A stretch of DNA of 64,000 nucleotides, taken from NCBI GenBank assembly GCA_037443945.1, contig JBBINH010000005.1:36538-100537 (forward strand). Reading direction: 5' to 3'. Shown one piece after another: positions 810 to 51,816 of the stretch (positions within the stretch are counted from its first letter, which is position 1; each line of letters starts with the position of its first letter). Source of the stretch: Caldilineales bacterium. Its GTDB lineage: Bacteria; Chloroflexota; Anaerolineae; J102. The notes under the pieces are model-generated. The model worked only from the letters and a program-made list of their open reading frames with translations, searched no databases and was not told the DNA's origin. The translations under genes were made by a program, and so were the position numbers.

Positions 810-893
<84 letters not shown>

Positions 894-905
894 CCAACCT
901 CAGGA

Positions 906-988
906 TGCCGACGAGAGGACTCGAACCTCCACGACCTGGGGTCAACAGATCCTAAGTCTGTCGCGTCTGCCTGTTCCGCCACGTCGGC
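906..988 (-). tRNA. tRNA-Leu (anticodon TAG), long variable arm
   Basis: Reverse complement is GCCGACGTGGCGGAACAGGCAGACGCGACAGACTTAGGATCTGTTGACCCCAGGTCGTGGAGGTTCGAGTCCTCTCGTCGGC. It has anticodon loop CTTAGGA and a class II extra arm. Confidence 0.85.
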
Positions 989-1012
989 CTGGCGTTGGCG
1001 ACCGCAGGGTTG

Positions 1013-1455
1013 CAAGGAGCTGCGAGCAGGAGTACTCCCGATTCTGTTCTAACCGTCATCTGTCTCACATGGTGTGGTGAAACCTGGCCTGCCGGGTGTG
1101 ACCCGACTTCACCGGTTTCACTGCGACGAGACCGAATCACGGGGTTGACCATGACCCGGCCCACTCGCCTTGCTCCCGTTGCACGCTCGCCTAGCCGGCC
1201 GCATTGCTGCGCACCGCTGGTAGGCTCTTACCCTACCGTTTCAACCCTTACCCGCACCGATTCCTGGGGAGGAAATCGGCCGCTGGCGGGATTGCTTTCT
1301 GTTGCGGTTGTAGTCAACCGGCCGTTACCGGCCGGCTGCCCTCACTTGCTGTTTCGTGAGGCAACTTGGCCACGCTTGAGGGGTGGCCGGGAGTCGGGAA
1401 GTTCCTCTGCCGGCCTCAAGGCCGACAGCGACGGTTCTCTGCTCGCAGGGCCGTT
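1013..1455 (-). ncRNA. rnpB: RNase P RNA (bacterial type A-like), about 440 nt
   Basis: The reverse complement aligns block by block with E. coli M1 RNA. AGGGCAGCCGGCCGGTAACGGCCGG matches AGGGCAGGATGCCAGGTAACGCCTGG. GCAACAGAAAGCAA matches GCAACAGAGAGCAAACC. GGTAAGGGTTGAAACGGTAGGGTAAGAGCCTACC matches GGTAAGGGTGAAAGGGTGCGGTAAGAGCGCACC. The 3' motif ACAGAATCGGGAG matches ACAGAACCCGGCT. The P1 helix CTGCGAGCAG (5') pairs with CTGCTCGCAG (3'), and the P4 strands are mutually complementary. Confidence 0.75.
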
Positions 1456-1737: not shown

Positions 1738-2691
1738 ATGCGCGCGCTCGTCACCGGTGCTGCCGGTTTTGCGGCTACGCATCTGATCCAACATCTGCTG
1801 GCCGTTACCGACCTGCACATCATCGGCACCATCTATCGCCGTCAGCCTGAACGTGCCTACCCTGCCATGCGGGTGCACCTGGAACGGCTCGATCTGCGTG
1901 AGGAGGCGGCGGTGGCCGAAGTTCTCACTCGCTGGCGCCCCGATTTTATCTTCCATCTCGCCGCCCAGTCCTTTGTCCCCCTTTCCTGGCAGCATCCCTG
2001 GTCGACGTTCGAGCAAAATGTCCTCACCCAGATCAACCTGATCAAGGGCATGCTGGCCGCCCACCTGGACGCGCGACTGCTCGTGGTCAGTTCCGGTGAG
2101 GTCTACGGCGCCTTTGATCCCGCCGAGCTGCCGCTTGATGAAGACACCCCTTTGCGTCCTCTCTCGCCTTACGGCGTCAGTAAGGCCGCTCAGGATCTGC
2201 TGGGCTGGCAATATCACCGCAGCCATGGCTTATTCATCGTGCGGGTACGACCGTTCAATCACATCGGTCCCGGCCAAAATGAGCTGTTCGTGACGGCCAG
2301 TTTTGCCAAACAAATCGCCCTGATCGAAGCCGGTCGGCAAAAAGGTCCGCTGCTCCATGGCGCCTTGGAGCCCGAACGGGATTTTACCGATGTGCGCGAT
2401 GTGGTACGCGCCTATTGGCTCGTTCTGAACCACGGCCGGCCCGGCGAGGTCTATAACATCGGCACCGGTCGCCGTATAAGCATCGGCACCGTGCTGGAAA
2501 TGCTCAGGAACATGGCCCGTGTGCCCATCGCCACGGCTTATGACCCGGCCCTCACCCGACCTGCCGATATCCCCTGCATCGTCAGCGATCCCACCCGCCT
2601 TCGACAGGCCACCGGTTGGGAACCGCTTATCCCGCTGGAACAGTCGTTACGGGATATCCTCGACGACTGGCGTCATCGTATCCTTGTCTGA
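1738..2691 (+). CDS. NAD-dependent epimerase/dehydratase, GDP-4-keto-6-deoxy-D-mannose reductase (Rmd)-like
   Basis: The protein has a Rossmann N-terminus MRALVTGAAGF and an active-site YGVSK motif. It shows Gmd-like blocks HLAAQSFVP and RPFNHIGPGQ. It sits directly upstream of gmd. The 1582 start in the ORF track is upstream read-through. Confidence 0.8.
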   Translation: MRALVTGAAGFAATHLIQHLLAVTDLHIIGTIYRRQPERAYPAMRVHLERLDLREEAAVAEVLTRWRPDFIFHLAAQSFVPLSWQHPWSTFEQNVLTQINLIKGMLAAHLDARLLVVSSGEVYGAFDPAELPLDEDTPLRPLSPYGVSKAAQDLLGWQYHRSHGLFIVRVRPFNHIGPGQNELFVTASFAKQIALIEAGRQKGPLLHGALEPERDFTDVRDVVRAYWLVLNHGRPGEVYNIGTGRRISIGTVLEMLRNMARVPIATAYDPALTRPADIPCIVSDPTRLRQATGWEPLIPLEQSLRDILDDWRHRILV

Positions 2692-2703
2692 CCGCTTTTT
2701 TAG

Positions 2704-3714
<1,011 letters not shown>

Positions 3715-3724
3715 GCTCGCAACG

Positions 3725-5161
3725 ATGACAGCAAAAATCACCTTTGGTACCGACGGCTGGCGCGGCAAAATTGCCGAGGATTACACCTTTGACAACGTGC
3801 GGCGTTGCACGCAAGGTTTTGCCGACTATCTGAAGCGCCTCTATAGCCCGGCGGAGGTGGCGCAGGGCGTCGTGGTCGGCGGCGATCGCCGTTTTGCTTC
3901 CGAGGACTTCTGTGCGGCCGTGGCCGAGGTGCTTGCGGCCAACGCCATTCCCGTCCACTTTGCCGGCGCCGGCACACCCACGCCGGTTATCGCCTATAGC
4001 GTGGTGGCACGCCAGGCCATCGGCGCCATCAACATCACGGCCAGCCACAATCCGCCTTCGGATAACGGCTTCAAGGTGCGCGATCGGCATGGCGGGGCCA
4101 TCGATCCCGCCGGGCTCAAACAAATCGAGGCGGCCATTCCGCCTATCGAGGGCGTGCGCCGGATGCGGTTTGAGAAGGGGGTCGAACAGGGGCTGATCCG
4201 GCCTTTTGACCCGAATCCGGCCTACATCGCCCAGATCGAACGCCTGGTCGAGCTGGAGCCTATTCGCCGGGCCGGTCTGACCATCGTCGTGGACAGCATG
4301 TGGGGGAACGGCGCCGGCTGGTTGAGCCGCCTTTTGGATGGCGGCACGACGCGTGTGATCGAGATCCACGCCGAGCGCAATCCCATCTTCCCGGAGATGA
4401 CGCGGCCGGAGCCGATCCCGCCCAATGTGAATGCCGGTCTGGCTGCCGGCGTGCGTTACGGAGCCGATTGTGTGTGCATCACCGACGGCGACGCCGATCG
4501 CTGCGGTCTGGGCGATGAAAACGGTCACTTCGTCGATCAGTTGCGGGTTTATGGCCTTCTGGCGATGTATCTACTCGATGTGCGTGGCCTGCGCGGGCCT
4601 ATCGTCAAAACCCTGAGCACGACCTCGATGTTGGAAAAACTCGGGGCGCGTTTTGGTGTACCCGTCTACCAGACCGGGGTCGGCTTCAAGTACGTGGCCC
4701 CCAAGATGCTGGAAGTGGATGCCCTTATCGGCGGTGAGGAAAGCGGCGGTTATGCCTTTCGCGGCCATGTGCCCGAACGCGACGGCATCCTGGCCAATCT
4801 CTACCTGCTCGATCTGATGGTACGGACCGGGCTCAAGCCGACCCAATTGCTGGAGCGGCTGTTTGCCCTGGTCGGCGGGCCCCACTATTACGATCGTGTG
4901 GACACCCGGTTGGAGGACGAGGAAACCAAACGACGCGCCCAGGCCCTGCTCGACGCGGCGCAACCGGAGACCATCGGCGGCCTGCGGTGCACCGGCAAAT
5001 TGACCGTGGACGGCTACAAGTTCGAGCTGGAGGACGGTGGCTGGCTGTTGATCCGCTTCAGCGGCACCGAACCGCTCATTCGGGTCTATTGTGAGACGCT
5101 TCACGCCGACCGGGTCCAGGCCATCCTGGCCGATGGCCGCCGCCTGGCCGGTCTTGCCTGA
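3725..5161 (+). CDS. phosphomannomutase/phosphoglucomutase (alpha-D-phosphohexomutase)
   Basis: The protein begins [14 protein letters not shown] and contains the phosphoserine loop [14 protein letters not shown] and the metal loop TDGDADR. The true start is at 3725, within the longer 3647 ORF. Confidence 0.85.
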
Positions 5162-5164
5162 ACG

Positions 5165-6082
5165 ATGCTGGTTGATACCCATTGTCATCTGACGGCTGCC
5201 CAGTTCGATGCCGACCGCGAGGCGGTGATGGCAAGGGCGCAAGCGGCCGGGGTGATGGCCATGGTCACCATCGCCACCGATCTGAACGATGCCATGGCCG
5301 TGGTGACCCTGGCCGCTGCACAACCGGCCGTCTACGCCGCCGTGGGCATTCATCCCAACGAAGCGGCCCGGTTACCGCCGGATTGGCCGGAATCGCTGCG
5401 CGCCCTGGCCGGCCGGCCCAGGGTAGTGGCCATCGGCGAAATCGGGCTGGACTACTACTGGCGCCGGACTCCGGAGGACATCCAGAAGGGGGTCCTGCGC
5501 CGGCAGCTCGATCTGGCCGCCGAGCTGGGGCTGCCCGTTATTATTCACGATCGCGAAGCCCATGACGACCTGCGCCGCGAGCTGCAGGACTGGGTATGGC
5601 GACGGGTGCCGGGCACGCCTCTTGCTGCCCGGCCCTTTGTGGGCGTATTGCACAGCTTCTCCGGCGATCGGGCCATGGCCGAGGAGGCCCTGGCCTGGGG
5701 TTTTGTGTTGGGGGTGGCCGGCCTTGTGACCTTTCACAATGCCCGCGGCCTGCAGGCCCTTGTCCGCCATCTGCCGCCCGAGCGGGTGGTCGTGGAGACC
5801 GATTCGCCTTATCTGGCGCCTCATCCCTATCGCGGACGGCGCAACGAACCGGCCCATGTGGCTTTGGTGGCCGCCAAGCTGGCCAAACTTTGGGAACTGC
5901 CGGCCGCGCAGGTGGCGACCATGACGACGGCTACGGCCGACCGTCTCTTTGGGCTGGCGGCGACTCCCGACGAAGCCCTCCCGGACCATCACAAAACGGG
6001 CGACGGCGCCGAAGTCGAAAGCAACGCCGGGGCGCCGGGAACCCTGCCCGGGATGTCGTTCTCTCCTGTTCCTCCGCCGTGA
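5165..6082 (+). CDS. TatD family metal-dependent hydrolase with about 35 aa C-terminal extension
   Basis: MLVDTHCHL, GEIGLDYY and GLPVIIHDREAH are TatD family motifs. The gene is separated from the upstream stop by 3 nt. Confidence 0.85.
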   Translation: MLVDTHCHLTAAQFDADREAVMARAQAAGVMAMVTIATDLNDAMAVVTLAAAQPAVYAAVGIHPNEAARLPPDWPESLRALAGRPRVVAIGEIGLDYYWRRTPEDIQKGVLRRQLDLAAELGLPVIIHDREAHDDLRRELQDWVWRRVPGTPLAARPFVGVLHSFSGDRAMAEEALAWGFVLGVAGLVTFHNARGLQALVRHLPPERVVVETDSPYLAPHPYRGRRNEPAHVALVAAKLAKLWELPAAQVATMTTATADRLFGLAATPDEALPDHHKTGDGAEVESNAGAPGTLPGMSFSPVPPP

Positions 6083-6093
6083 GGCCTACCGCC

Positions 6094-6294
6094 ATGACGT
6101 CTGCCGACCGTGCTGCCTTGATCGCCCGCAAGCAAGAGGTCATTGCCGCCCAAGAGCGCTTACGACGTGAGCTGGCCCGTCTTGAGGAACAACCCGGCCG
6201 ACACGAGCGCCGTTGCCGGCAACTGCGGCGTCAGCTCGAGGCCCTCATGGCCGAAGAGTACCGCTTGCGGTTGGCCATTGACCGCGCGCGCTGA
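6094..6294 (+). CDS. small hypothetical coiled-coil protein (66 aa)
   Basis: ORF MTSADRAALIARKQEVIAAQERLRRELARLEEQ...LAIDRAR is a charged heptad-like sequence. It has no family assignment. Confidence 0.3.
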   Translation: MTSADRAALIARKQEVIAAQERLRRELARLEEQPGRHERRCRQLRRQLEALMAEEYRLRLAIDRAR

Positions 6295-21802: not shown

Positions 21803-22633
21803 ATGACGGCTAGGGAAGAAACGGCTATCCAGGGTATGATAGCGGCAAGATCGGCCGATCCCATCCTCGCTCGGCGCCGTTTGCTGTCCATGACCACATC
21901 GACGTCGTTTCCACTTACCTGGCTGGACGAGCTGGACGTCCTGGCGGCAGCCTGGGCAGGTGGCGATAATGTCACGGCTCCGGCAGCCGAGGCCGCCCTT
22001 GCCCTGTGGCGGGCCCGCCTGCAGCGGCCGGCCGTTCCCGAAGAAGAATGGCTGGATGTGGTCACGCCGAGCGGTGAACCGTACGGCTGGTCGGCCCCGC
22101 GTTGGTTTTGCCATCTGGTCGGCCTGCGCCATCGCGTGGTGTACGTCTATCTGACCACGCCGCAGGGGCTGCTGGCCTTGCAGATGCGGGCCCACACCAA
22201 GCCGGAATGGCCTTCGCGGTTCGACACGACGGTCGCCGGGCATGTCAAGGCCGGTCGGACCTGGGAAGAGGGGGTGATGGCCGAAATCGAGGAGGAACTG
22301 GGCCTGGCGGCCATAACCCGCAAGCGCTGGCTGGCGAACGGTCGCTTGCAGCCGGTGGCGGGCTATGAACGCTACAGCGTGGACGAAGGTCTACCGCCTT
22401 ATCGCAATCGCCAGGTCAACCGCATCTTTGCCGGCACGCTCACGGCCTGGGGGCTGGCCCATGTGGGTTTCGCCGACGGCGAAGTGGGGGGACTCTATCT
22501 GTGTCGGCCGGAAGAGGCGCAGCGCCTGGTAACGACGGGCTTCCTGGTGGCGCCGGGGTTGCAGCGGTCCTTTCCCTATTGGTGGGCCTGGTGGCTGGCG
22601 CAATCGGGTCAGACCGTACCGGCGGCGCCGTGA
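21803..22633 (+). CDS. NUDIX hydrolase domain protein
   Basis: GHVKAGRTWEEGVMAEIEEELGL is a Nudix box. The start codon is uncertain and could be an internal M. Confidence 0.65.
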   Translation: MTAREETAIQGMIAARSADPILARRRLLSMTTSTSFPLTWLDELDVLAAAWAGGDNVTAPAAEAALALWRARLQRPAVPEEEWLDVVTPSGEPYGWSAPRWFCHLVGLRHRVVYVYLTTPQGLLALQMRAHTKPEWPSRFDTTVAGHVKAGRTWEEGVMAEIEEELGLAAITRKRWLANGRLQPVAGYERYSVDEGLPPYRNRQVNRIFAGTLTAWGLAHVGFADGEVGGLYLCRPEEAQRLVTTGFLVAPGLQRSFPYWWAWWLAQSGQTVPAAP

Positions 22634-23277
22634 AGGGTGGGTCGGCGCCCGATATCCCGCCATGGGTTCAGGGCCATCTGTTGCGAACGGCGGTAGACGG
22701 CCACCAGATAGATGCTATCGGCAAGCAAGATGGCCATGTACAGAAAATCAAAGAGCCAGGCTGTGGGACGAATAACAAAGAAAGTCAGGGAAACTGCTAA
22801 AGTTCCTAATAATTTACATAAAGCGATGTAAAAGGATTGTCCTTCTAATCCTTGGCGTCGTAAAAACATATTGATAAAAAGAATGGACATAAGCAGATTT
22901 TGCCCATAAGCTGCGTATCTTCCCATCATGTCATTGAATTCGCGCGATATAAGCACTATCAGTAAGAAACTTGCCGTTAATGTTAGCAATATCGTAGGAA
23001 TAAAAAATCGCTCCGGTAAATTCTGTATTGGTGGATCGCTACGCCAATACTTGAGAAATTGCCAAAATATGATACAATCCAAGATAAACCAGATATAATT
23101 GACGTATAATTGCGGTTTGGGATGAGGAAAGACAAAAGAGAATATGAACTCCCAACTGATATTGGCGCATAAAGCGACAAACGGCATGCCGTAAGTTTTA
23201 TCCTGAAAACCGCGAATGATGATCAGGATGTAGGTCAATGACCAGAAAAAACCCGAAATAAGCAGGCCGATGACCAT
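22609..23277 (-). CDS. hypothetical polytopic membrane protein encoded by AT-rich island
   Basis: The first ~165 aa (MVIGLLISGFFWSLTYILIIIRGF...) come from DNA of about 40% GC at 22741-23290. The last ~55 aa are read through into flanking GC-rich DNA, overlapping the NUDIX 3' end. Confidence 0.5.
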   Translation of the reverse strand: MVIGLLISGFFWSLTYILIIIRGFQDKTYGMPFVALCANISWEFIFSFVFPHPKPQLYVNYIWFILDCIIFWQFLKYWRSDPPIQNLPERFFIPTILLTLTASFLLIVLISREFNDMMGRYAAYGQNLLMSILFINMFLRRQGLEGQSFYIALCKLLGTLAVSLTFFVIRPTAWLFDFLYMAILLADSIYLVAVYRRSQQMALNPWRDIGRRPTLHGAAGTV

Positions 23278-23317
23278 AGCGCTTACGAAAGGGCCGCACG
23301 CACGATAGGACCTGGGC

Positions 23318-24034
23318 TTAGATCGGCGGCCAGGGGTGGTTGCGACGCCGGGGATCGGGATGGGGAAAGTGACCGGCCGCGATCAGGGCATCCAGGCGTT
23401 GGTGGAAGGCGCGGATTTCGGCCGGGCTGAGGAGCGCAACCAGCCGAGCCTGGAGTTCGGTATCGTGACACAGGCGGACCGCCAGCTTCTGCAGATCGGC
23501 CAGCAAAGGGGCCGGGATCGGTTCACCGGCAAAATCCCAGATGACCGTGCGCAGCTTGGGCTCCACATGAAAACACAGGCCGTGATCGATAGACCACATC
23601 CGTCCCTGGGCATCGAGCAGGCAGTGGCCGGCTTTGCGGTCGGCGTTGTTGGTGATGACATCGAACAAAGCGATCCGGCGGAAGTCGTCGGCATGGCGGG
23701 GGAAGATGTTGAAGTAGTGCTGTTCGGGATCGCTTTCGATGTAGACCTGAACCGTCCCCGGTCCATAGGCTCCCTCGCGCAGGACCGTCGGTGGGATGAG
23801 CTCCCAGCCCAGGGCTTCGGCGACGAGATAGGCGGCGTACTCGCGCAGATAGAGGGTGCCGTTGGGAAAATCCCACAGCGGCCGTTCCCCGCGCCGGGGT
23901 TTGTACACGGCCGGCAGTTCCCGTCCCTCATAACAGGCGCGCACAAGCAGGGCGTAGTTTGAACTCCAGGGGATAACTCCCAACGGTTCCAGCTCGCCCT
24001 GGCCGAGGATTCGCAAAGCTGTGGCCGTATCCAT
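23318..24034 (-). CDS. SCO1664 family protein (PI3/PI4-kinase-like atypical kinase fold)
   Basis: Family-like sequence with catalytic-loop-like NADRKAGHCLL and IDHGLCF (DFG-like). It is encoded next to a DUF3090 gene, as is typical for this family. Confidence 0.75.
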   Translation of the reverse strand: MDTATALRILGQGELEPLGVIPWSSNYALLVRACYEGRELPAVYKPRRGERPLWDFPNGTLYLREYAAYLVAEALGWELIPPTVLREGAYGPGTVQVYIESDPEQHYFNIFPRHADDFRRIALFDVITNNADRKAGHCLLDAQGRMWSIDHGLCFHVEPKLRTVIWDFAGEPIPAPLLADLQKLAVRLCHDTELQARLVALLSPAEIRAFHQRLDALIAAGHFPHPDPRRRNHPWPPI

Positions 24035-40463: not shown

Positions 40464-41687
40464 TTACGGTGTAGCCGAGATGTAGTCGCTCACCTGGACC
40501 CATTTGCCGTTCTCCACCTTGAACATGCGCAGAGCGTTGTTGCCCTTGTGGCTGGTGGGTGAGAAGGAAATGGGTGCGGTGACACCGCCGGTGTCGAAGT
40601 TCTGGATGGATTCGAGGCCGCCGCGGATGTTCTCGCCGGTCACGGGCTTGCCCTGCTGGATGGTGCGCCGGATGCCCTCGGTCATGACGGCCATGGTCCA
40701 CCAGCCCTGGCTATAGTGGAGCCCTTTGGCCTCCAGACTGGAGCCCTTGCTCTTCAACCACTCGTCGGGGTCCTTATGACCCGGCACGGGCGATGTGGGC
40801 GGGGTGAAGGGAAGGGCGCCGAACACACCCTCGGCTGCCGCTCCGGCCAGATTGATCAGGATCTCATCCGCACACCAGTTGAGCAGGATGAATTGCATGC
40901 TGTTCTTGTAGCCCTGATCGGCCGCGTTCTTCAGCAAAACGGCAGCCGGACTCGAAACCGTGTGGACGATGACGTAATTGGCGCCGAATTGCTGAATCTG
41001 GGCCAATTCGGCTACGTAGTCGGTCGCTCCGCGCGGCATGGGCAGGCTGGTGAAGCCGATGCCGTTGGCGTCGGCAAAGGCCTTGGCATCCTCCAGCGGC
41101 GATTGCCCGAAGGGACTATCGTGATGAATGACGGCCACCTTTGGCTTCCCGCTGTTGCCCTTCGCCGCCCAGTCATCCGCCGCCCAGCGGAGGGCAATGA
41201 TGGCCTGGTCGGAATAGGTGGTGCCGATCAGGAAGTTGTAGGGCGCCTCGTCCATCTTGGTCAGGGCTGCCGAATAGGAGGCCGACATGAAGGGGATTTT
41301 GTCCTCGGCGATTCTGGGCCGCAGGGCTTCGGTATCGCCGGTACCCCAACCCATAAAGGCCACCACTCCCTCGCCGACAAACTGGCTGTAGAGGGCTTCG
41401 GCCTGGTCCACCTTGTAGGCATAGTCGGCCGAGACCAGGTCAATGGGATGGCCCTCCACACCGCCTTTGCTGTTGAGCCATTCGACAAAACCTTTGACGC
41501 CTTCGCTATAGGGCGTGCCGACATCGGCCGTGGCCCCGGTCAAGTCGAAGATGGCGCCGACCTTGACCGGCTCTTGCGGCCGGACGGCTTCGGTCGCCGC
41601 CGGGGCTTGCGGCGCAGGACCGGCGCAGGCACTTAGTATCAGCACCGCGAACAACACGAATGGGATGATCAGTTGGCGACGCGACAT
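40464..41687 (-). CDS. ABC transporter substrate-binding lipoprotein (LivK/amide-type, family 4)
   Basis: MSRRQLIIPFVLFAVLILSAC is a lipoprotein signal on a periplasmic binding-protein fold. An RBS GGAGGA lies upstream of the 41687 start. Confidence 0.8.
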   Translation of the reverse strand: MSRRQLIIPFVLFAVLILSACAGPAPQAPAATEAVRPQEPVKVGAIFDLTGATADVGTPYSEGVKGFVEWLNSKGGVEGHPIDLVSADYAYKVDQAEALYSQFVGEGVVAFMGWGTGDTEALRPRIAEDKIPFMSASYSAALTKMDEAPYNFLIGTTYSDQAIIALRWAADDWAAKGNSGKPKVAVIHHDSPFGQSPLEDAKAFADANGIGFTSLPMPRGATDYVAELAQIQQFGANYVIVHTVSSPAAVLLKNAADQGYKNSMQFILLNWCADEILINLAGAAAEGVFGALPFTPPTSPVPGHKDPDEWLKSKGSSLEAKGLHYSQGWWTMAVMTEGIRRTIQQGKPVTGENIRGGLESIQNFDTGGVTAPISFSPTSHKGNNALRMFKVENGKWVQVSDYISATP

Positions 41688-41769
41688 GGGATATCCTCCT
41701 AACCAAAAAGCAAATAGAAGAAAAAAATCGGAAATCAATCTAAAATTTTAAGAAATCTTATCACCTCCC

Positions 41770-42813
41770 TTAATAGCTAAAAGGCCACAAACGGAAGTAA
41801 TTTTTGATGTCTCTCCAGATCTTATTCAGCCCTTCTGGTTCAAAAATCAGAAATAAGATGATTACCAAGCCGAATGCTGCTAACTGGAAAAAGGGGATTA
41901 ACCCTTCGACGATAGGAAATGTACCTTTGAGCGCCCGTCCCAGATTGGTCAACAAAGCCGGCAGAAGGGTCATAAAAGCCGCGCCGAAATACGAACCGGT
42001 GACCGAACCCAGCCCGCCGATGATGATCATGGCCAGGTAGGTGACCGAGACATCCATGGTAAAACGTTCCCAGGTCACGATGGTGCGGTAATGGGCCGTC
42101 AGGGCGCCGGCCAGACCGACGAAAAAGGAGGAAATGGCAAAGGCCAGGAGCTTGTACTTGAACAGGTCGACGCCCATGACCGAGGCGGCAATGTCCTGGT
42201 CGCGAATGGCAATGAAGGCACGGCCAAAACGGCTGCGGAAGAGGTTGACGGTAAGGAGGGTGACCAAAGCGGCACAGCCCCAGATGACCCAGTAGAAGTT
42301 GAAATCGGTGTTGACCCGTCGGCCGAACAGGGTCGGCGCCGGAACGACCAGGGCCTCGACCCCACCGGTCACGGCTTTCCAATGGGTGACCACCCACAAG
42401 ATGATGACCTGGGCGGCCAGCGTGGCAATGGCCAGGTACAGACCTTTCAGGCGCAGCGAAGGGATTCCGAAGACCATCCCCACCAAGGCCGTCATCAGGC
42501 AGGCGATAGGCGTCGATAGCCACCAGGGCACACCGTAGCGGGCGGTCAGGATGCCGGCGGTATACGCTCCCACGGCTAGAAAGCCCCCCTGGCCCAGGCT
42601 GATCTGGCCGGTGTAACCGACCAGGATATTGAGACCGATGGCCCCGATGACGGCAATCCCGACCTGATTGGCCAGATTGAGGTAGTAACGGCTGGCCAGG
42701 AAGGGGAAGATCAAGGCCAGGACGATGACCAGGACCAGGCGGATTTTCTGCGCCGGAGTGCGGCGCAACGCCATATCCTGCTCGTAGGTTGTGTGGTAAA
42801 TGCCCGAGACCAT
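41770..42813 (-). CDS. branched-chain amino acid ABC transporter permease LivM-like
   Basis: Polytopic permease of the LivM family. Confidence 0.8.
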   Translation of the reverse strand: MVSGIYHTTYEQDMALRRTPAQKIRLVLVIVLALIFPFLASRYYLNLANQVGIAVIGAIGLNILVGYTGQISLGQGGFLAVGAYTAGILTARYGVPWWLSTPIACLMTALVGMVFGIPSLRLKGLYLAIATLAAQVIILWVVTHWKAVTGGVEALVVPAPTLFGRRVNTDFNFYWVIWGCAALVTLLTVNLFRSRFGRAFIAIRDQDIAASVMGVDLFKYKLLAFAISSFFVGLAGALTAHYRTIVTWERFTMDVSVTYLAMIIIGGLGSVTGSYFGAAFMTLLPALLTNLGRALKGTFPIVEGLIPFFQLAAFGLVIILFLIFEPEGLNKIWRDIKNYFRLWPFSY

Positions 42814-50770: not shown

Positions 50771-51349
50771 ATGGTTCGGACCGCCGTCTTGCTCGTTCTA
50801 ACCTTGTTCGTGATCGGTGTGGCCGGTTGTTGGCGTCCCTATACCTTTCACGGCATGGTTATGCAATCACCCCAGCCGGCGCCCGATTTCACGTTGATGA
50901 CCCACCAGGGGCAACCACTACGCCTGAGCGATCTGCGCGGTCGTGTGGTGGTGTTGTATTTCGGCTACACCTTTTGTCCGGATGTCTGTCCGGCTACGCT
51001 TAGCGAATGGGCTAAAGTGATGCGACTCCTGGGCGATAAAGCCGATCAGGTGCAGTTGCTGATGATCACGGTCGATCCGGAACGGGATACGCCTGCCAAA
51101 ATGGCGGATTATGTGCGTCATTTCGATCCGCGCTTTATCGGACTGAGCGGTTCAGTCGATGAGATCGCCCGTATTGCTACGCTATACGGTATTTATTATC
51201 GCAAAAACGAACAAGAAGGTAAGGATTATCTAGTTGATCATACTGCCACACAAACAGTAATAGATAAAGACGGATATATCAAGTTAATCTTTCCGTTTGG
51301 TGCTACTTTTGATGAGATTTTTGCGGATTTGCGATACATGCTACGATAG
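50771..51349 (+). CDS. SCO1/SenC family copper chaperone, second paralog
   Basis: YFGYTFCPDVCP is the CxxxC motif and DHT a conserved block. The gene's 3' end is AT-rich. Confidence 0.8.
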   Translation: MVRTAVLLVLTLFVIGVAGCWRPYTFHGMVMQSPQPAPDFTLMTHQGQPLRLSDLRGRVVVLYFGYTFCPDVCPATLSEWAKVMRLLGDKADQVQLLMITVDPERDTPAKMADYVRHFDPRFIGLSGSVDEIARIATLYGIYYRKNEQEGKDYLVDHTATQTVIDKDGYIKLIFPFGATFDEIFADLRYMLR

Positions 51350-51372
51350 ATTTTTATCAAGGAGGTAAAAGC

Positions 51373-51816
51373 ATGCGACATCTCTCGTTTCTGTTTATTA
51401 TCGCTGTATTTATCTTGTCGGGACTAAGCGCCTGCCAACGAGCCGGTGCTAAAACCATCGTTCTGGAGGAGGTTTGGGGTCGTCCTTCCCCAAAAGCCGC
51501 CGAAAACGGTGCCATTTACATGCGTATCCGTAACACGGGCAAGCAGCCCGACCGCCTGGTCGGCGCCGAATCGCCTGCCTGTGGTATGACCGAGCTGCAT
51601 GAAACCGTTATGGATGCCCAAGGGGTTATGACGATGCAGCCCGTCGGGAGCATCCCCGTCCCGGCCGGCGGGGAGGTGGAACTCAAGGTGGGTGGCTTGC
51701 ATGTGATGTGTATGCACAAACGCGAGGCTTTTCAACCGGGAGCGCGCATCCCGTTAACACTTCATTTCGAGAAGGCGGGCGCTATCACCCTCGAGGTGGA
51801 AATCCGCCAACAGTAG
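51373..51816 (+). CDS. copper chaperone PCu(A)C (DUF461)
   Basis: The protein has a lipoprotein signal LSAC. MTELHE and HVMCMH are Met/His copper-binding motifs typical of PCuAC. Confidence 0.8.
   Translation: MRHLSFLFIIAVFILSGLSACQRAGAKTIVLEEVWGRPSPKAAENGAIYMRIRNTGKQPDRLVGAESPACGMTELHETVMDAQGVMTMQPVGSIPVPAGGEVELKVGGLHVMCMHKREAFQPGARIPLTLHFEKAGAITLEVEIRQQ

Follow-up and report, generated by a model that had tools for sequence, protein, structure and literature searches.

A low-GC tract inside an intact Pyr4-like transmembrane terpene cyclase gene of a Caldilineales bacterium, probably of old foreign origin

The Pyr4 family of transmembrane terpene cyclases (TMTCs) includes the fungal enzymes Pyr4, PaxB, AndB and AscF and, in bacteria, XiaH, TylF, GroF and ZigF, associated with xiamycin, tolypodiol, gromomycin and zigralone, respectively. 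For horizontally acquired genes, Lawrence–Ochman amelioration is the classical framework, and the pbp mosaics of pneumococci are an example of mosaic genes made by homeologous recombination. We compared these systems with a single gene in a 64,000-nucleotide stretch of DNA (the window) from a Caldilineales bacterium of the phylum Chloroflexota (assembly GCA_037443945.1, contig JBBINH010000005.1). The gene, called TMTC here, lies on the minus strand at 22609..23277. It is a complete coding sequence (CDS) of 222 codons plus a stop, recognized as a Pyr4-like TMTC from the open reading frame (ORF), a Pfam match (PF25129), its homologs and an AlphaFold2 model, and it contains a tract of unusually low guanine-plus-cytosine (GC) content. 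We consider it likely that this tract is the central ~145 codons of an intact, seven-helix, Pyr4-like TMTC gene, and that an old transfer brought in this body from a low-GC donor, with vertical inheritance since.

XiaH, TylF, GroF and ZigF are the characterized bacterial Pyr4-like cyclases, and characterized members are encoded in clusters with a prenyltransferase, polyprenyl synthase, epoxidase or P450 gene (PMC13307353). A 2026 survey collected 1107 bacterial Pyr4-like homologs and kept 264 of them for their nearby terpenoid genes, setting about three quarters aside (PMC13307353). Judged by its gene neighborhood, the window TMTC belongs to the stand-alone majority of these homologs. The Pfam listing for 10 kb on either side held no prenyltransferase, polyprenyl synthase, P450 or epoxidase gene, that is, none of the genes that would mark a terpenoid cluster. 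What the window TMTC has in common with Pyr4-family cyclases is the match to their hidden Markov model (HMM), the compact size of ~220 residues and the seven transmembrane (TM) helices. Its TM2 also holds an invariant Glu and its TM7 an invariant Asp, which may be the counterparts of E63 and D218 of Pyr4. It differs from the characterized members in standing alone among housekeeping genes, and its clade is without a characterized member.

The gene is likewise stand-alone in Pontibacter, in other Chloroflexota and in an archaeon (L091), where it lies among MCM, RFC and eIF-6 genes, and homologs are also present on Nostoc plasmids. The clade spans Chloroflexota, Bacteroidota, Nostoc plasmids and ammonia-oxidizing archaea at ~50% identity, and the contexts of family members differ in every lineage examined, which points to mobility. 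The stand-alone copies of Pontibacter, Rufibacter and Botryobacter are 50–55% identical to the window protein over 90% of its length, have the same size and are also single genes without a cluster. They are not low-GC outliers (the Pontibacter gene has a GC of 0.50 in a 0.43-GC locus), whereas the window TMTC is an outlier with an intragenic mosaic. The GC of the archaeal copy, 0.39, equals that of its genome.

The sole Pfam match of the ORF was PF25129, the Pyr4-like transmembrane terpene cyclases (E = 4.3e-28; 99 bits, with a gathering cut-off of 27), in which residues 5–185 were aligned to profile positions 21–202 of 227. An earlier reading of this DNA, made without database searches (the sequence-only reading), had put forward the YhhN family, which Pfam did not return. 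An NCBIfam scan of the TMTC ORF returned no family. A large protein database held 973 homologs, and the best 120 of the 973 all carry PF25129. NCBI gives the name "transmembrane-type terpene cyclase" to several of the homologs (Pontibacter, Rufibacter, Botryobacter); further homologs come from Chloroflexota, Anaerolineae and Nitrosopumilaceae. In an alignment of 43 members, mean per-column identity was 58%, and the residues invariant across all 43 include E43 (in the motif SWEF), I183, D187 and Y190. The codon of Glu43 is GAG (23149..23151, minus strand) and that of Asp187 is GAT (22717..22719, minus strand).

An AlphaFold2 model built from the 43-member alignment had a predicted local distance difference test score (pLDDT) of 92 and a predicted TM-score (pTM) of 0.87. 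It predicts seven TM helices at residues 2–26, 33–49, 56–77, 89–113, 120–141, 149–169 and 174–200, together with a short C-terminal helix, and the hydropathy peaks are consistent with the seven modeled helices. The earlier description of a polytopic membrane protein therefore holds, and its count of about six helices becomes seven. Glu63 and Asp218 are the active-site residues of Pyr4 (PMC6486709); E43 in TM2 and D187 in TM7, whose spacing and helix positions are plausible, are their putative counterparts. Searches of the PDB gave no match by sequence at E ≤ 1 and, by fold, only weak seven-TM look-alikes, namely SWEET, cystinosin (PQ-loop) and the KDEL receptor (Foldseek E 0.009–0.4; TM-score 0.45–0.62), so no relative of TMTC has been solved. 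The gene is intact, it is single-copy, with no second TMTC in the 64-kb window, and its sequence suggests that the product is probably functional.

The sequence-only reading had drawn attention to a sharp AT-rich island of about 550 bp, and the sliding-window GC profile bears this out. GC is 0.391 at 22741-23290 against a window mean of 0.619 (standard deviation 0.042; z = −5.4), and no other 550-bp stretch of the 64 kb is lower. In 200-bp segments of the profile, GC is 0.36–0.39 across 22700-23199, and the flanks are at ~0.65 (about 0.67 on one side and 0.59–0.67 on the other). The island lies inside a single minus-strand ORF, that of TMTC. Over the whole ORF, GC at the first, second and third codon positions (GC1, GC2 and GC3) is 0.44, 0.37 and 0.50. 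The GC3 of neighboring genes is 0.73–0.78, in line with the earlier remark that the codon usage is AT-rich and unlike that of the neighbors. The low GC is due partly to amino-acid composition and not to codon choice alone.

An identical protein with the same neighbors was present in two NCBI metagenome-assembled genomes (MAGs; GCA_034433475.1 and GCA_037441015.1) and in two Logan assemblies of separate runs. Over 1619 bp spanning both junctions, one assembly was identical to the window and the others differed by 11–15 single-nucleotide polymorphisms. Three other lineages carry the gene in the same slot, downstream of an SCO1664-family gene and convergent with a NUDIX gene (SCO1664 > TMTC > < NUDIX): L005 (a JGI metagenome), L010 (Caldilineales bacterium SKW222) and L093 (a JGI metagenome). 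Their TMTCs are 80–89% identical, with GC of 0.31–0.46 inside and 0.60–0.70 outside. The source of the window is itself a MAG and its composition switches abruptly, as it would if a low-GC fragment of another organism had been joined into a GC-rich contig. Against such a chimera, seven independent assemblies from different projects, strains and species (L001–L005, L010 and L093) have the same arrangement and an in-frame ORF, and TMTC has co-diverged with its flanks. Given that four independent assemblies of the species agree on the junctions and that three other species have this gene arrangement too, the chimeric join that the earlier reading wished to see excluded has next to no chance of being the explanation.

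Synonymous divergence between lineages (dS, Nei–Gojobori) is 0.97–1.36 for TMTC and 0.49–1.06 for His_Phos_1, DUF3090, SCO1664, NUDIX and glucokinase, and the branching order of TMTC is the same as that of the neighbor genes. The common slot, the dS values and the shared branching order together indicate that TMTC was present in the common ancestor and has been vertically inherited since. On these sequence comparisons the acquisition is old, not recent, and predates the split of at least four Caldilineales lineages. A recent horizontal insertion had been suggested from the sequence; we retain the view that most of the gene comes from a foreign, low-GC source but drop the recency, because the same slot is occupied in four lineages and dS is ~1.0–1.4.

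The sequence-only reading had also allowed for a truncated foreign gene whose ORF runs in frame into GC-rich host DNA. The GC jump does fall within the ORF, ~45 codons short of the stop, and the ORF reaches into the end of the NUDIX gene, as had been noticed. The overlap is convergent, involves the 3′ ends of both genes and spans 25 nt (22609..22633); ORF coordinates give the same overlap in L001–L005. However, the GC-rich tail (codons 176–222; 22612..22752, minus strand), which was delimited by its GC3 of 0.72, a change-point and conservation, aligns with the C-terminus of the family. It includes most of TM7 (residues 174–200 in the AlphaFold2 model; 22678-22758, minus strand), the invariant residues I183, D187 and Y190, and a Y-R-x(5-6)-NPW motif that is conserved in homologs of several phyla. 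Asp187 is kept in homologs from several bacterial phyla and from archaea, and the last ~14 residues form a variable C-terminal end that is poorly modeled. Full-length homologs that include the tail exist at normal GC in relatives (P0003–P0007; L006 and L008; L097), an observation that the sequence-only reading had itself named as one that would tell against it. Since the gene is also common to four lineages with dS of at least 1, the recent insertion of a truncated gene is very improbable.

The foreign composition is confined to codons 31–175 (22753..23187, minus strand), which cover TM2–TM6 and form the body of the gene. Body GC3 is 0.40 in the window and 0.35–0.40 in the other three lineages, compared with ~0.75 for host genes, and the ratio of TTA to CTG codons is 11:3 in the body compared with 1:80 in four neighboring genes. 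The amino acids of the body are also of the AT type, with a FYMINK fraction (residues F, Y, M, I, N and K) of 0.37. We rejected a codon effect shared by membrane proteins because GC3 is 0.67–0.82 in eight further ORFs of the window that encode hydrophobic membrane proteins. A low GC intrinsic to the family was also rejected: in L097, where locus GC is 0.71, two tandem TMTC paralogs that are 55% identical to the window TMTC have GC3 of 0.96–0.98, and the TMTCs of L006 and L008, which are other Chloroflexota, have host-like GC3 of 0.60–0.63. The L097 paralogs (576-1280 and 1277-1927) overlap by 4 nt and share 68% identity with each other, and their arrangement may hint that some members act as pairs.

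We polarized third-position changes by parsimony on the four-lineage tree, with two genes representing the neighbors. The ratio of changes from A or T to G or C (weak to strong, W>S) to changes in the opposite direction (S>W) was 73:38 in the body, 9:15 in the tail and 60:109 in the two neighbors (Fisher p = 8e-7). Since parsimony is biased by base composition, we simulated a stationary gene with a GC3 of 0.42, for which the W>S fraction was 0.55 ± 0.05. The fraction observed in the body was 0.66 (P = 0.013), and the neighbors matched their stationary expectation (0.36 observed, 0.37 expected). The excess in the body over the stationary expectation suggests a tract that is out of equilibrium and drifting toward the GC of its host, as would ameliorating foreign DNA. 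Support from these sequence data for an ameliorating body is real but modest. Likeness to ameliorating acquired genes and genomic islands extends to the atypical GC and codon usage, the AT>GC drift at third positions and a patchy distribution in relatives.

No transfer would be needed if the gene were native and selection kept its GC3 low, for example through rare codons that slow translation during membrane insertion or hold expression down. In favor of this, four lineages have kept the low GC3 although dS is at least 1, the S>W rate per site in the body is somewhat above that of the neighbors (0.25 vs. 0.16–0.19), and the nearest relatives are Chloroflexota. However, the net flux is from AT to GC, which marks the tract as out of equilibrium, and GC3 is normal in the window's other polytopic membrane proteins. 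Homologs reach GC3 of 0.96–0.98 in GC-rich genomes and 0.60–0.63 in L006 and L008. The amino acids of the body are AT-shifted as well, and TM7 of the same protein is unaffected. We regard a native gene as improbable and retain transfer of the body from a low-GC donor.

A neighbor-joining tree placed the Caldilineales clade as sister to the other Chloroflexota sequences P0003–P0005 and not to the Bacteroidota or archaeal branches. As far as tree and composition can tell, the donor was probably a lower-GC organism with a Chloroflexota-type allele. A scan of viral contigs with the family alignment turned up no relative and so gives no sign that a phage served as vector.

Both edges of the low-GC tract fall inside the CDS. 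By maximum likelihood, the 3′ change-point in GC3 lies after codon 171–178 in the window, L005 and L010 (twice the log-likelihood difference, 20–27), a position that corresponds to the TM6–TM7 loop. The difference in GC3 between tail and body was significant in each of the four lineages (Fisher p = 2–4e-4), and the tail amino acids are shifted in the GC direction, with a FYMINK fraction of 0.27–0.30 compared with 0.43 ± 0.08 for the family. The proportion of synonymous differences (pS) and the substitution flux in the tail are host-like. A hidden constrained DNA element in the tail was considered and rejected because pS is similar to that of host genes. At the other end, the first 30 codons (TM1; 23188..23277, minus strand) are intermediate to host-like. 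Their GC3 is 0.63 in the window, against 0.40 for the body, and 0.50–0.70 across lineages (Fisher p against the body 0.004–0.03 in three lineages and 0.16 in L005). Upstream of them, the 40-nt spacer from the SCO1664 stop codon to the TMTC start codon (23278..23317, minus strand) has a host-like GC of 0.65, and the same spacers in other lineages are 42–211 nt long with GC of 0.55–0.62. From the shared boundaries and the host-like spacers and tail, it would follow that the gene was already mosaic in the ancestor: low in GC in the middle, host-like at the 3′ end and probably also at the 5′ end, with no foreign non-coding flank surviving. The low-GC tract thus appears, from sequence composition, to be strictly intragenic. 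The 211-nt spacer of L010 (6718-6928), which compares with 40 nt in the window, contains ~3 tandem copies of a ~38-nt GC-rich unit (…CCTCCGGATGGCATCCGGAGCTACAGCTCCCCCAAACC…).

The most economical reading of this layout, which we put forward tentatively, is an exchange by homeologous recombination in which a low-GC allele took over the central part of a host-adapted copy already in place, with its 3′ crossover in the conserved TM6–TM7 loop (RPxAWLFDFLY). As in pneumococcal pbp, a block of divergent composition would sit in a host-like gene with a breakpoint in a conserved motif. The differences from pbp are that no parental allele, resident or donor, was found and that the event is ancient and not recent, so membership among mosaic genes is not established. 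Mosaic genes are recognized by identifiable parental sequences and by discordant phylogenies across the breakpoint; neither was found here, and only the compositional breakpoints speak for replacement.

Alternatively, the whole low-GC TMTC gene may have been inserted between SCO1664 and NUDIX by illegitimate recombination, and its ends may have become host-like later through gene conversion from a GC-rich paralog located elsewhere in the genome or through faster change at the edges. This scenario competes only with the allelic-replacement part of our proposal. It gains from L011–L013, which have no resident copy in the slot, from the quite different contexts in other Chloroflexota, which show that the gene relocates, from the tandem paralogs of L097, which show that conversion donors can exist, and from the nearest relatives, which body and tail have in common. 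It sits less well with the lack of any non-coding flank of foreign composition in four lineages (spacers of 0.55–0.65 GC) and with a sharp 3′ boundary that is common to the three lineages tested and already at equilibrium. The 64-kb window holds no second TMTC, and there is no known mechanism for position-dependent amelioration. We judge whole-gene insertion rather unlikely and keep replacement of the middle of a resident gene as the tentatively preferred reading.

Our search for an empty site covered 80 SCO1664 loci (GTDB species representatives) and a metagenome scan with the NUDIX protein. No SCO1664–NUDIX pair without TMTC was found among them, and the search gave the three additional carriers L005, L010 and L093. 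In L011–L013, the region downstream of SCO1664 was not syntenic.

Several points weigh against the account given here. The 5′ boundary is weak (p = 0.004–0.16), and its change-point is fuzzy, falling anywhere from codon 9 to codon 46. No phylogenetic discordance was found between body and tail, which have the same nearest relatives, in a comparison where the tail contributes only ~33 informative residues. In the more distant relatives examined, neither an empty site nor a GC-normal resident copy in the slot was found. After the parsimony calibration, amelioration is modestly significant (P ~0.01), and the signal exceeds what simple amelioration models predict. The nearest protein relatives, which are 59–65% identical, are moderate- to high-GC Chloroflexota, with no low-GC donor lineage among them. 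Finally, the pairing of E43 and D187 with the Pyr4 active site is putative, drawn from spacing, helix position and the published active-site residues (PMC6486709).

With these points taken into account, the sequence of events that we favor is as follows. The body would have been acquired from a donor of low GC ahead of the divergence of at least four Caldilineales lineages, and the gene would then have descended vertically in the slot SCO1664 > TMTC > < NUDIX. Since then the body would have been ameliorating slowly toward the composition of its host; the spacer upstream of the gene and the TM7 tail would already be host-like and at compositional equilibrium, with the first ~30 codons less clearly so. 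In kind, TMTC is a further member of a known family and an ordinary old horizontal acquisition. For annotation, this means that a suspicious AT-rich ORF becomes a complete Pyr4-family cyclase gene, probably of old foreign origin, and not an assembly error in a MAG. A mosaic of composition within one gene, with a 3′ edge that falls on a helix boundary, also offers a small example for studies of amelioration and homeologous recombination.

The locus differs from classical genomic islands in being a single gene of less than 0.7 kb, without an integrase, tRNA site or direct repeats, and in having both compositional boundaries inside the CDS. Neither integrase nor transposase domains appeared in the Pfam listing for 10 kb on either side of TMTC. 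The tRNA genes of the window are found only at 337-988, which leaves none within 21 kb of the island, and the repeat search at the island yielded only short, chance-level matches. None of the classical hallmarks of a genomic island or integrative element (integrase or transposase, tRNA or att site, direct repeats) was thus found at the TMTC locus, in agreement with what had been noticed from the sequence. An Rfam search returned nothing in the island. One imperfect 12-nt direct repeat, 22736-22747 (ATGTACAGAAAA) and 23238-23249 (ATGACCAGAAAA), with 83% identity, lies near both low-GC edges and was judged to be due to chance.

Upstream of TMTC is a conserved string of genes on the same strand, His_Phos_1, DUF3090 and SCO1664, which stand side by side at most of the 80 scanned loci. 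The SCO1664-family gene is at 23318..24034 (minus strand; TIGR03843, E = 8.5e-86). Simple sigma-70 and intrinsic-terminator scans of the coding strand found no promoter- or terminator-like site in the 40-nt spacer, although the sigma-70 consensus may not apply to Chloroflexota. A GC-rich spacer without such sites suggests co-transcription with His_Phos_1–DUF3090–SCO1664, and TMTC is probably transcribed as the last gene of this string.

By analogy with the family, the product would be a class-II-type cyclase in which an acidic residue in a membrane cavity protonates a prenyl chain at its terminal olefin or epoxide, which starts cationic ring closure. Because TMTC stands alone, it presumably acts on a membrane isoprenoid whose synthesis is encoded elsewhere in the genome. 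It is a speculative, rather doubtful extension of these ideas that the uncharacterized, conserved, stand-alone clade spreads as a single-gene trait and that its substrate is not a cluster-specific meroterpenoid but a membrane isoprenoid of ubiquitous occurrence (carotenoid, quinone or polyprenyl lipid); the Caldilineales copy would then represent an intragenic, homeologous replacement of an allele, with the crossover exactly at the TM6/TM7 boundary. The clade crosses the boundary between bacteria and archaea at ~50% identity and is plasmid-borne in Nostoc; if it were true that its members modify a common membrane isoprenoid, they would provide a simple, transferable function in lipid remodeling.

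The convergent NUDIX gene (21803..22633, plus strand; Pfam NUDIX, E = 3.6e-8) has a host-like GC3 of 0.76 and encodes a 276-residue protein. Its best NCBIfam matches were YfcD (1.9e-10) and type-1 isopentenyl-diphosphate isomerase (IDI; 4.4e-10), both far below their cut-offs, and they may reflect either an isoprenoid link or coincidence. On the Nostoc plasmids p057_N (L094, 7986-8633 and 9006-9806) and pNPUN02 (L095, 6986-7633 and 8008-8760), TMTC is immediately followed by an annotated isopentenyl phosphate kinase gene on the same strand. Since both plasmid regions have one backbone in common, with ASCH and DnaB-like genes, they lack independence and amount to about one observation. A third Nostoc plasmid (L096) showed no isopentenyl phosphate kinase neighbor in its incomplete gene table. 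We did not adopt a functional link between TMTC and NUDIX, since NUDIX is host-like in composition, only this clade shows the pairing and the Nostoc cases count as about one.

Some minor observations were made elsewhere. The second-lowest GC dip of the window, at 51101-51400 (0.35–0.41 in 200-bp segments), may be another atypical patch. Two ORFs of the thioredoxin-fold SCO1/SenC-like type (family judged by eye) adjoin each other there, and the dip extends over the 3′ end of the second one and the spacer that precedes a small ORF at 51373..51816. An AT-rich segment at 41651-41900 (GC 0.34–0.42), between an ABC substrate-binding gene (40464..41738, minus strand) and a permease gene (41770..42813, minus strand), looks like ordinary intergenic or gene-end sequence. 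ARAGORN called a transfer-messenger RNA (tmRNA) at 810-1162 (minus strand) that overlaps the tRNA-Ala and tRNA-Leu genes of the six-tRNA cluster at 337-988; it is probably a false positive, Rfam giving six tRNAs and no tmRNA there. In the archaeal locus L091, the MCM helicase gene near TMTC (1852-6144; 1430 residues) appears to hold two inteins, with Intein_splicing and LAGLIDADG domains between the MCM segments.

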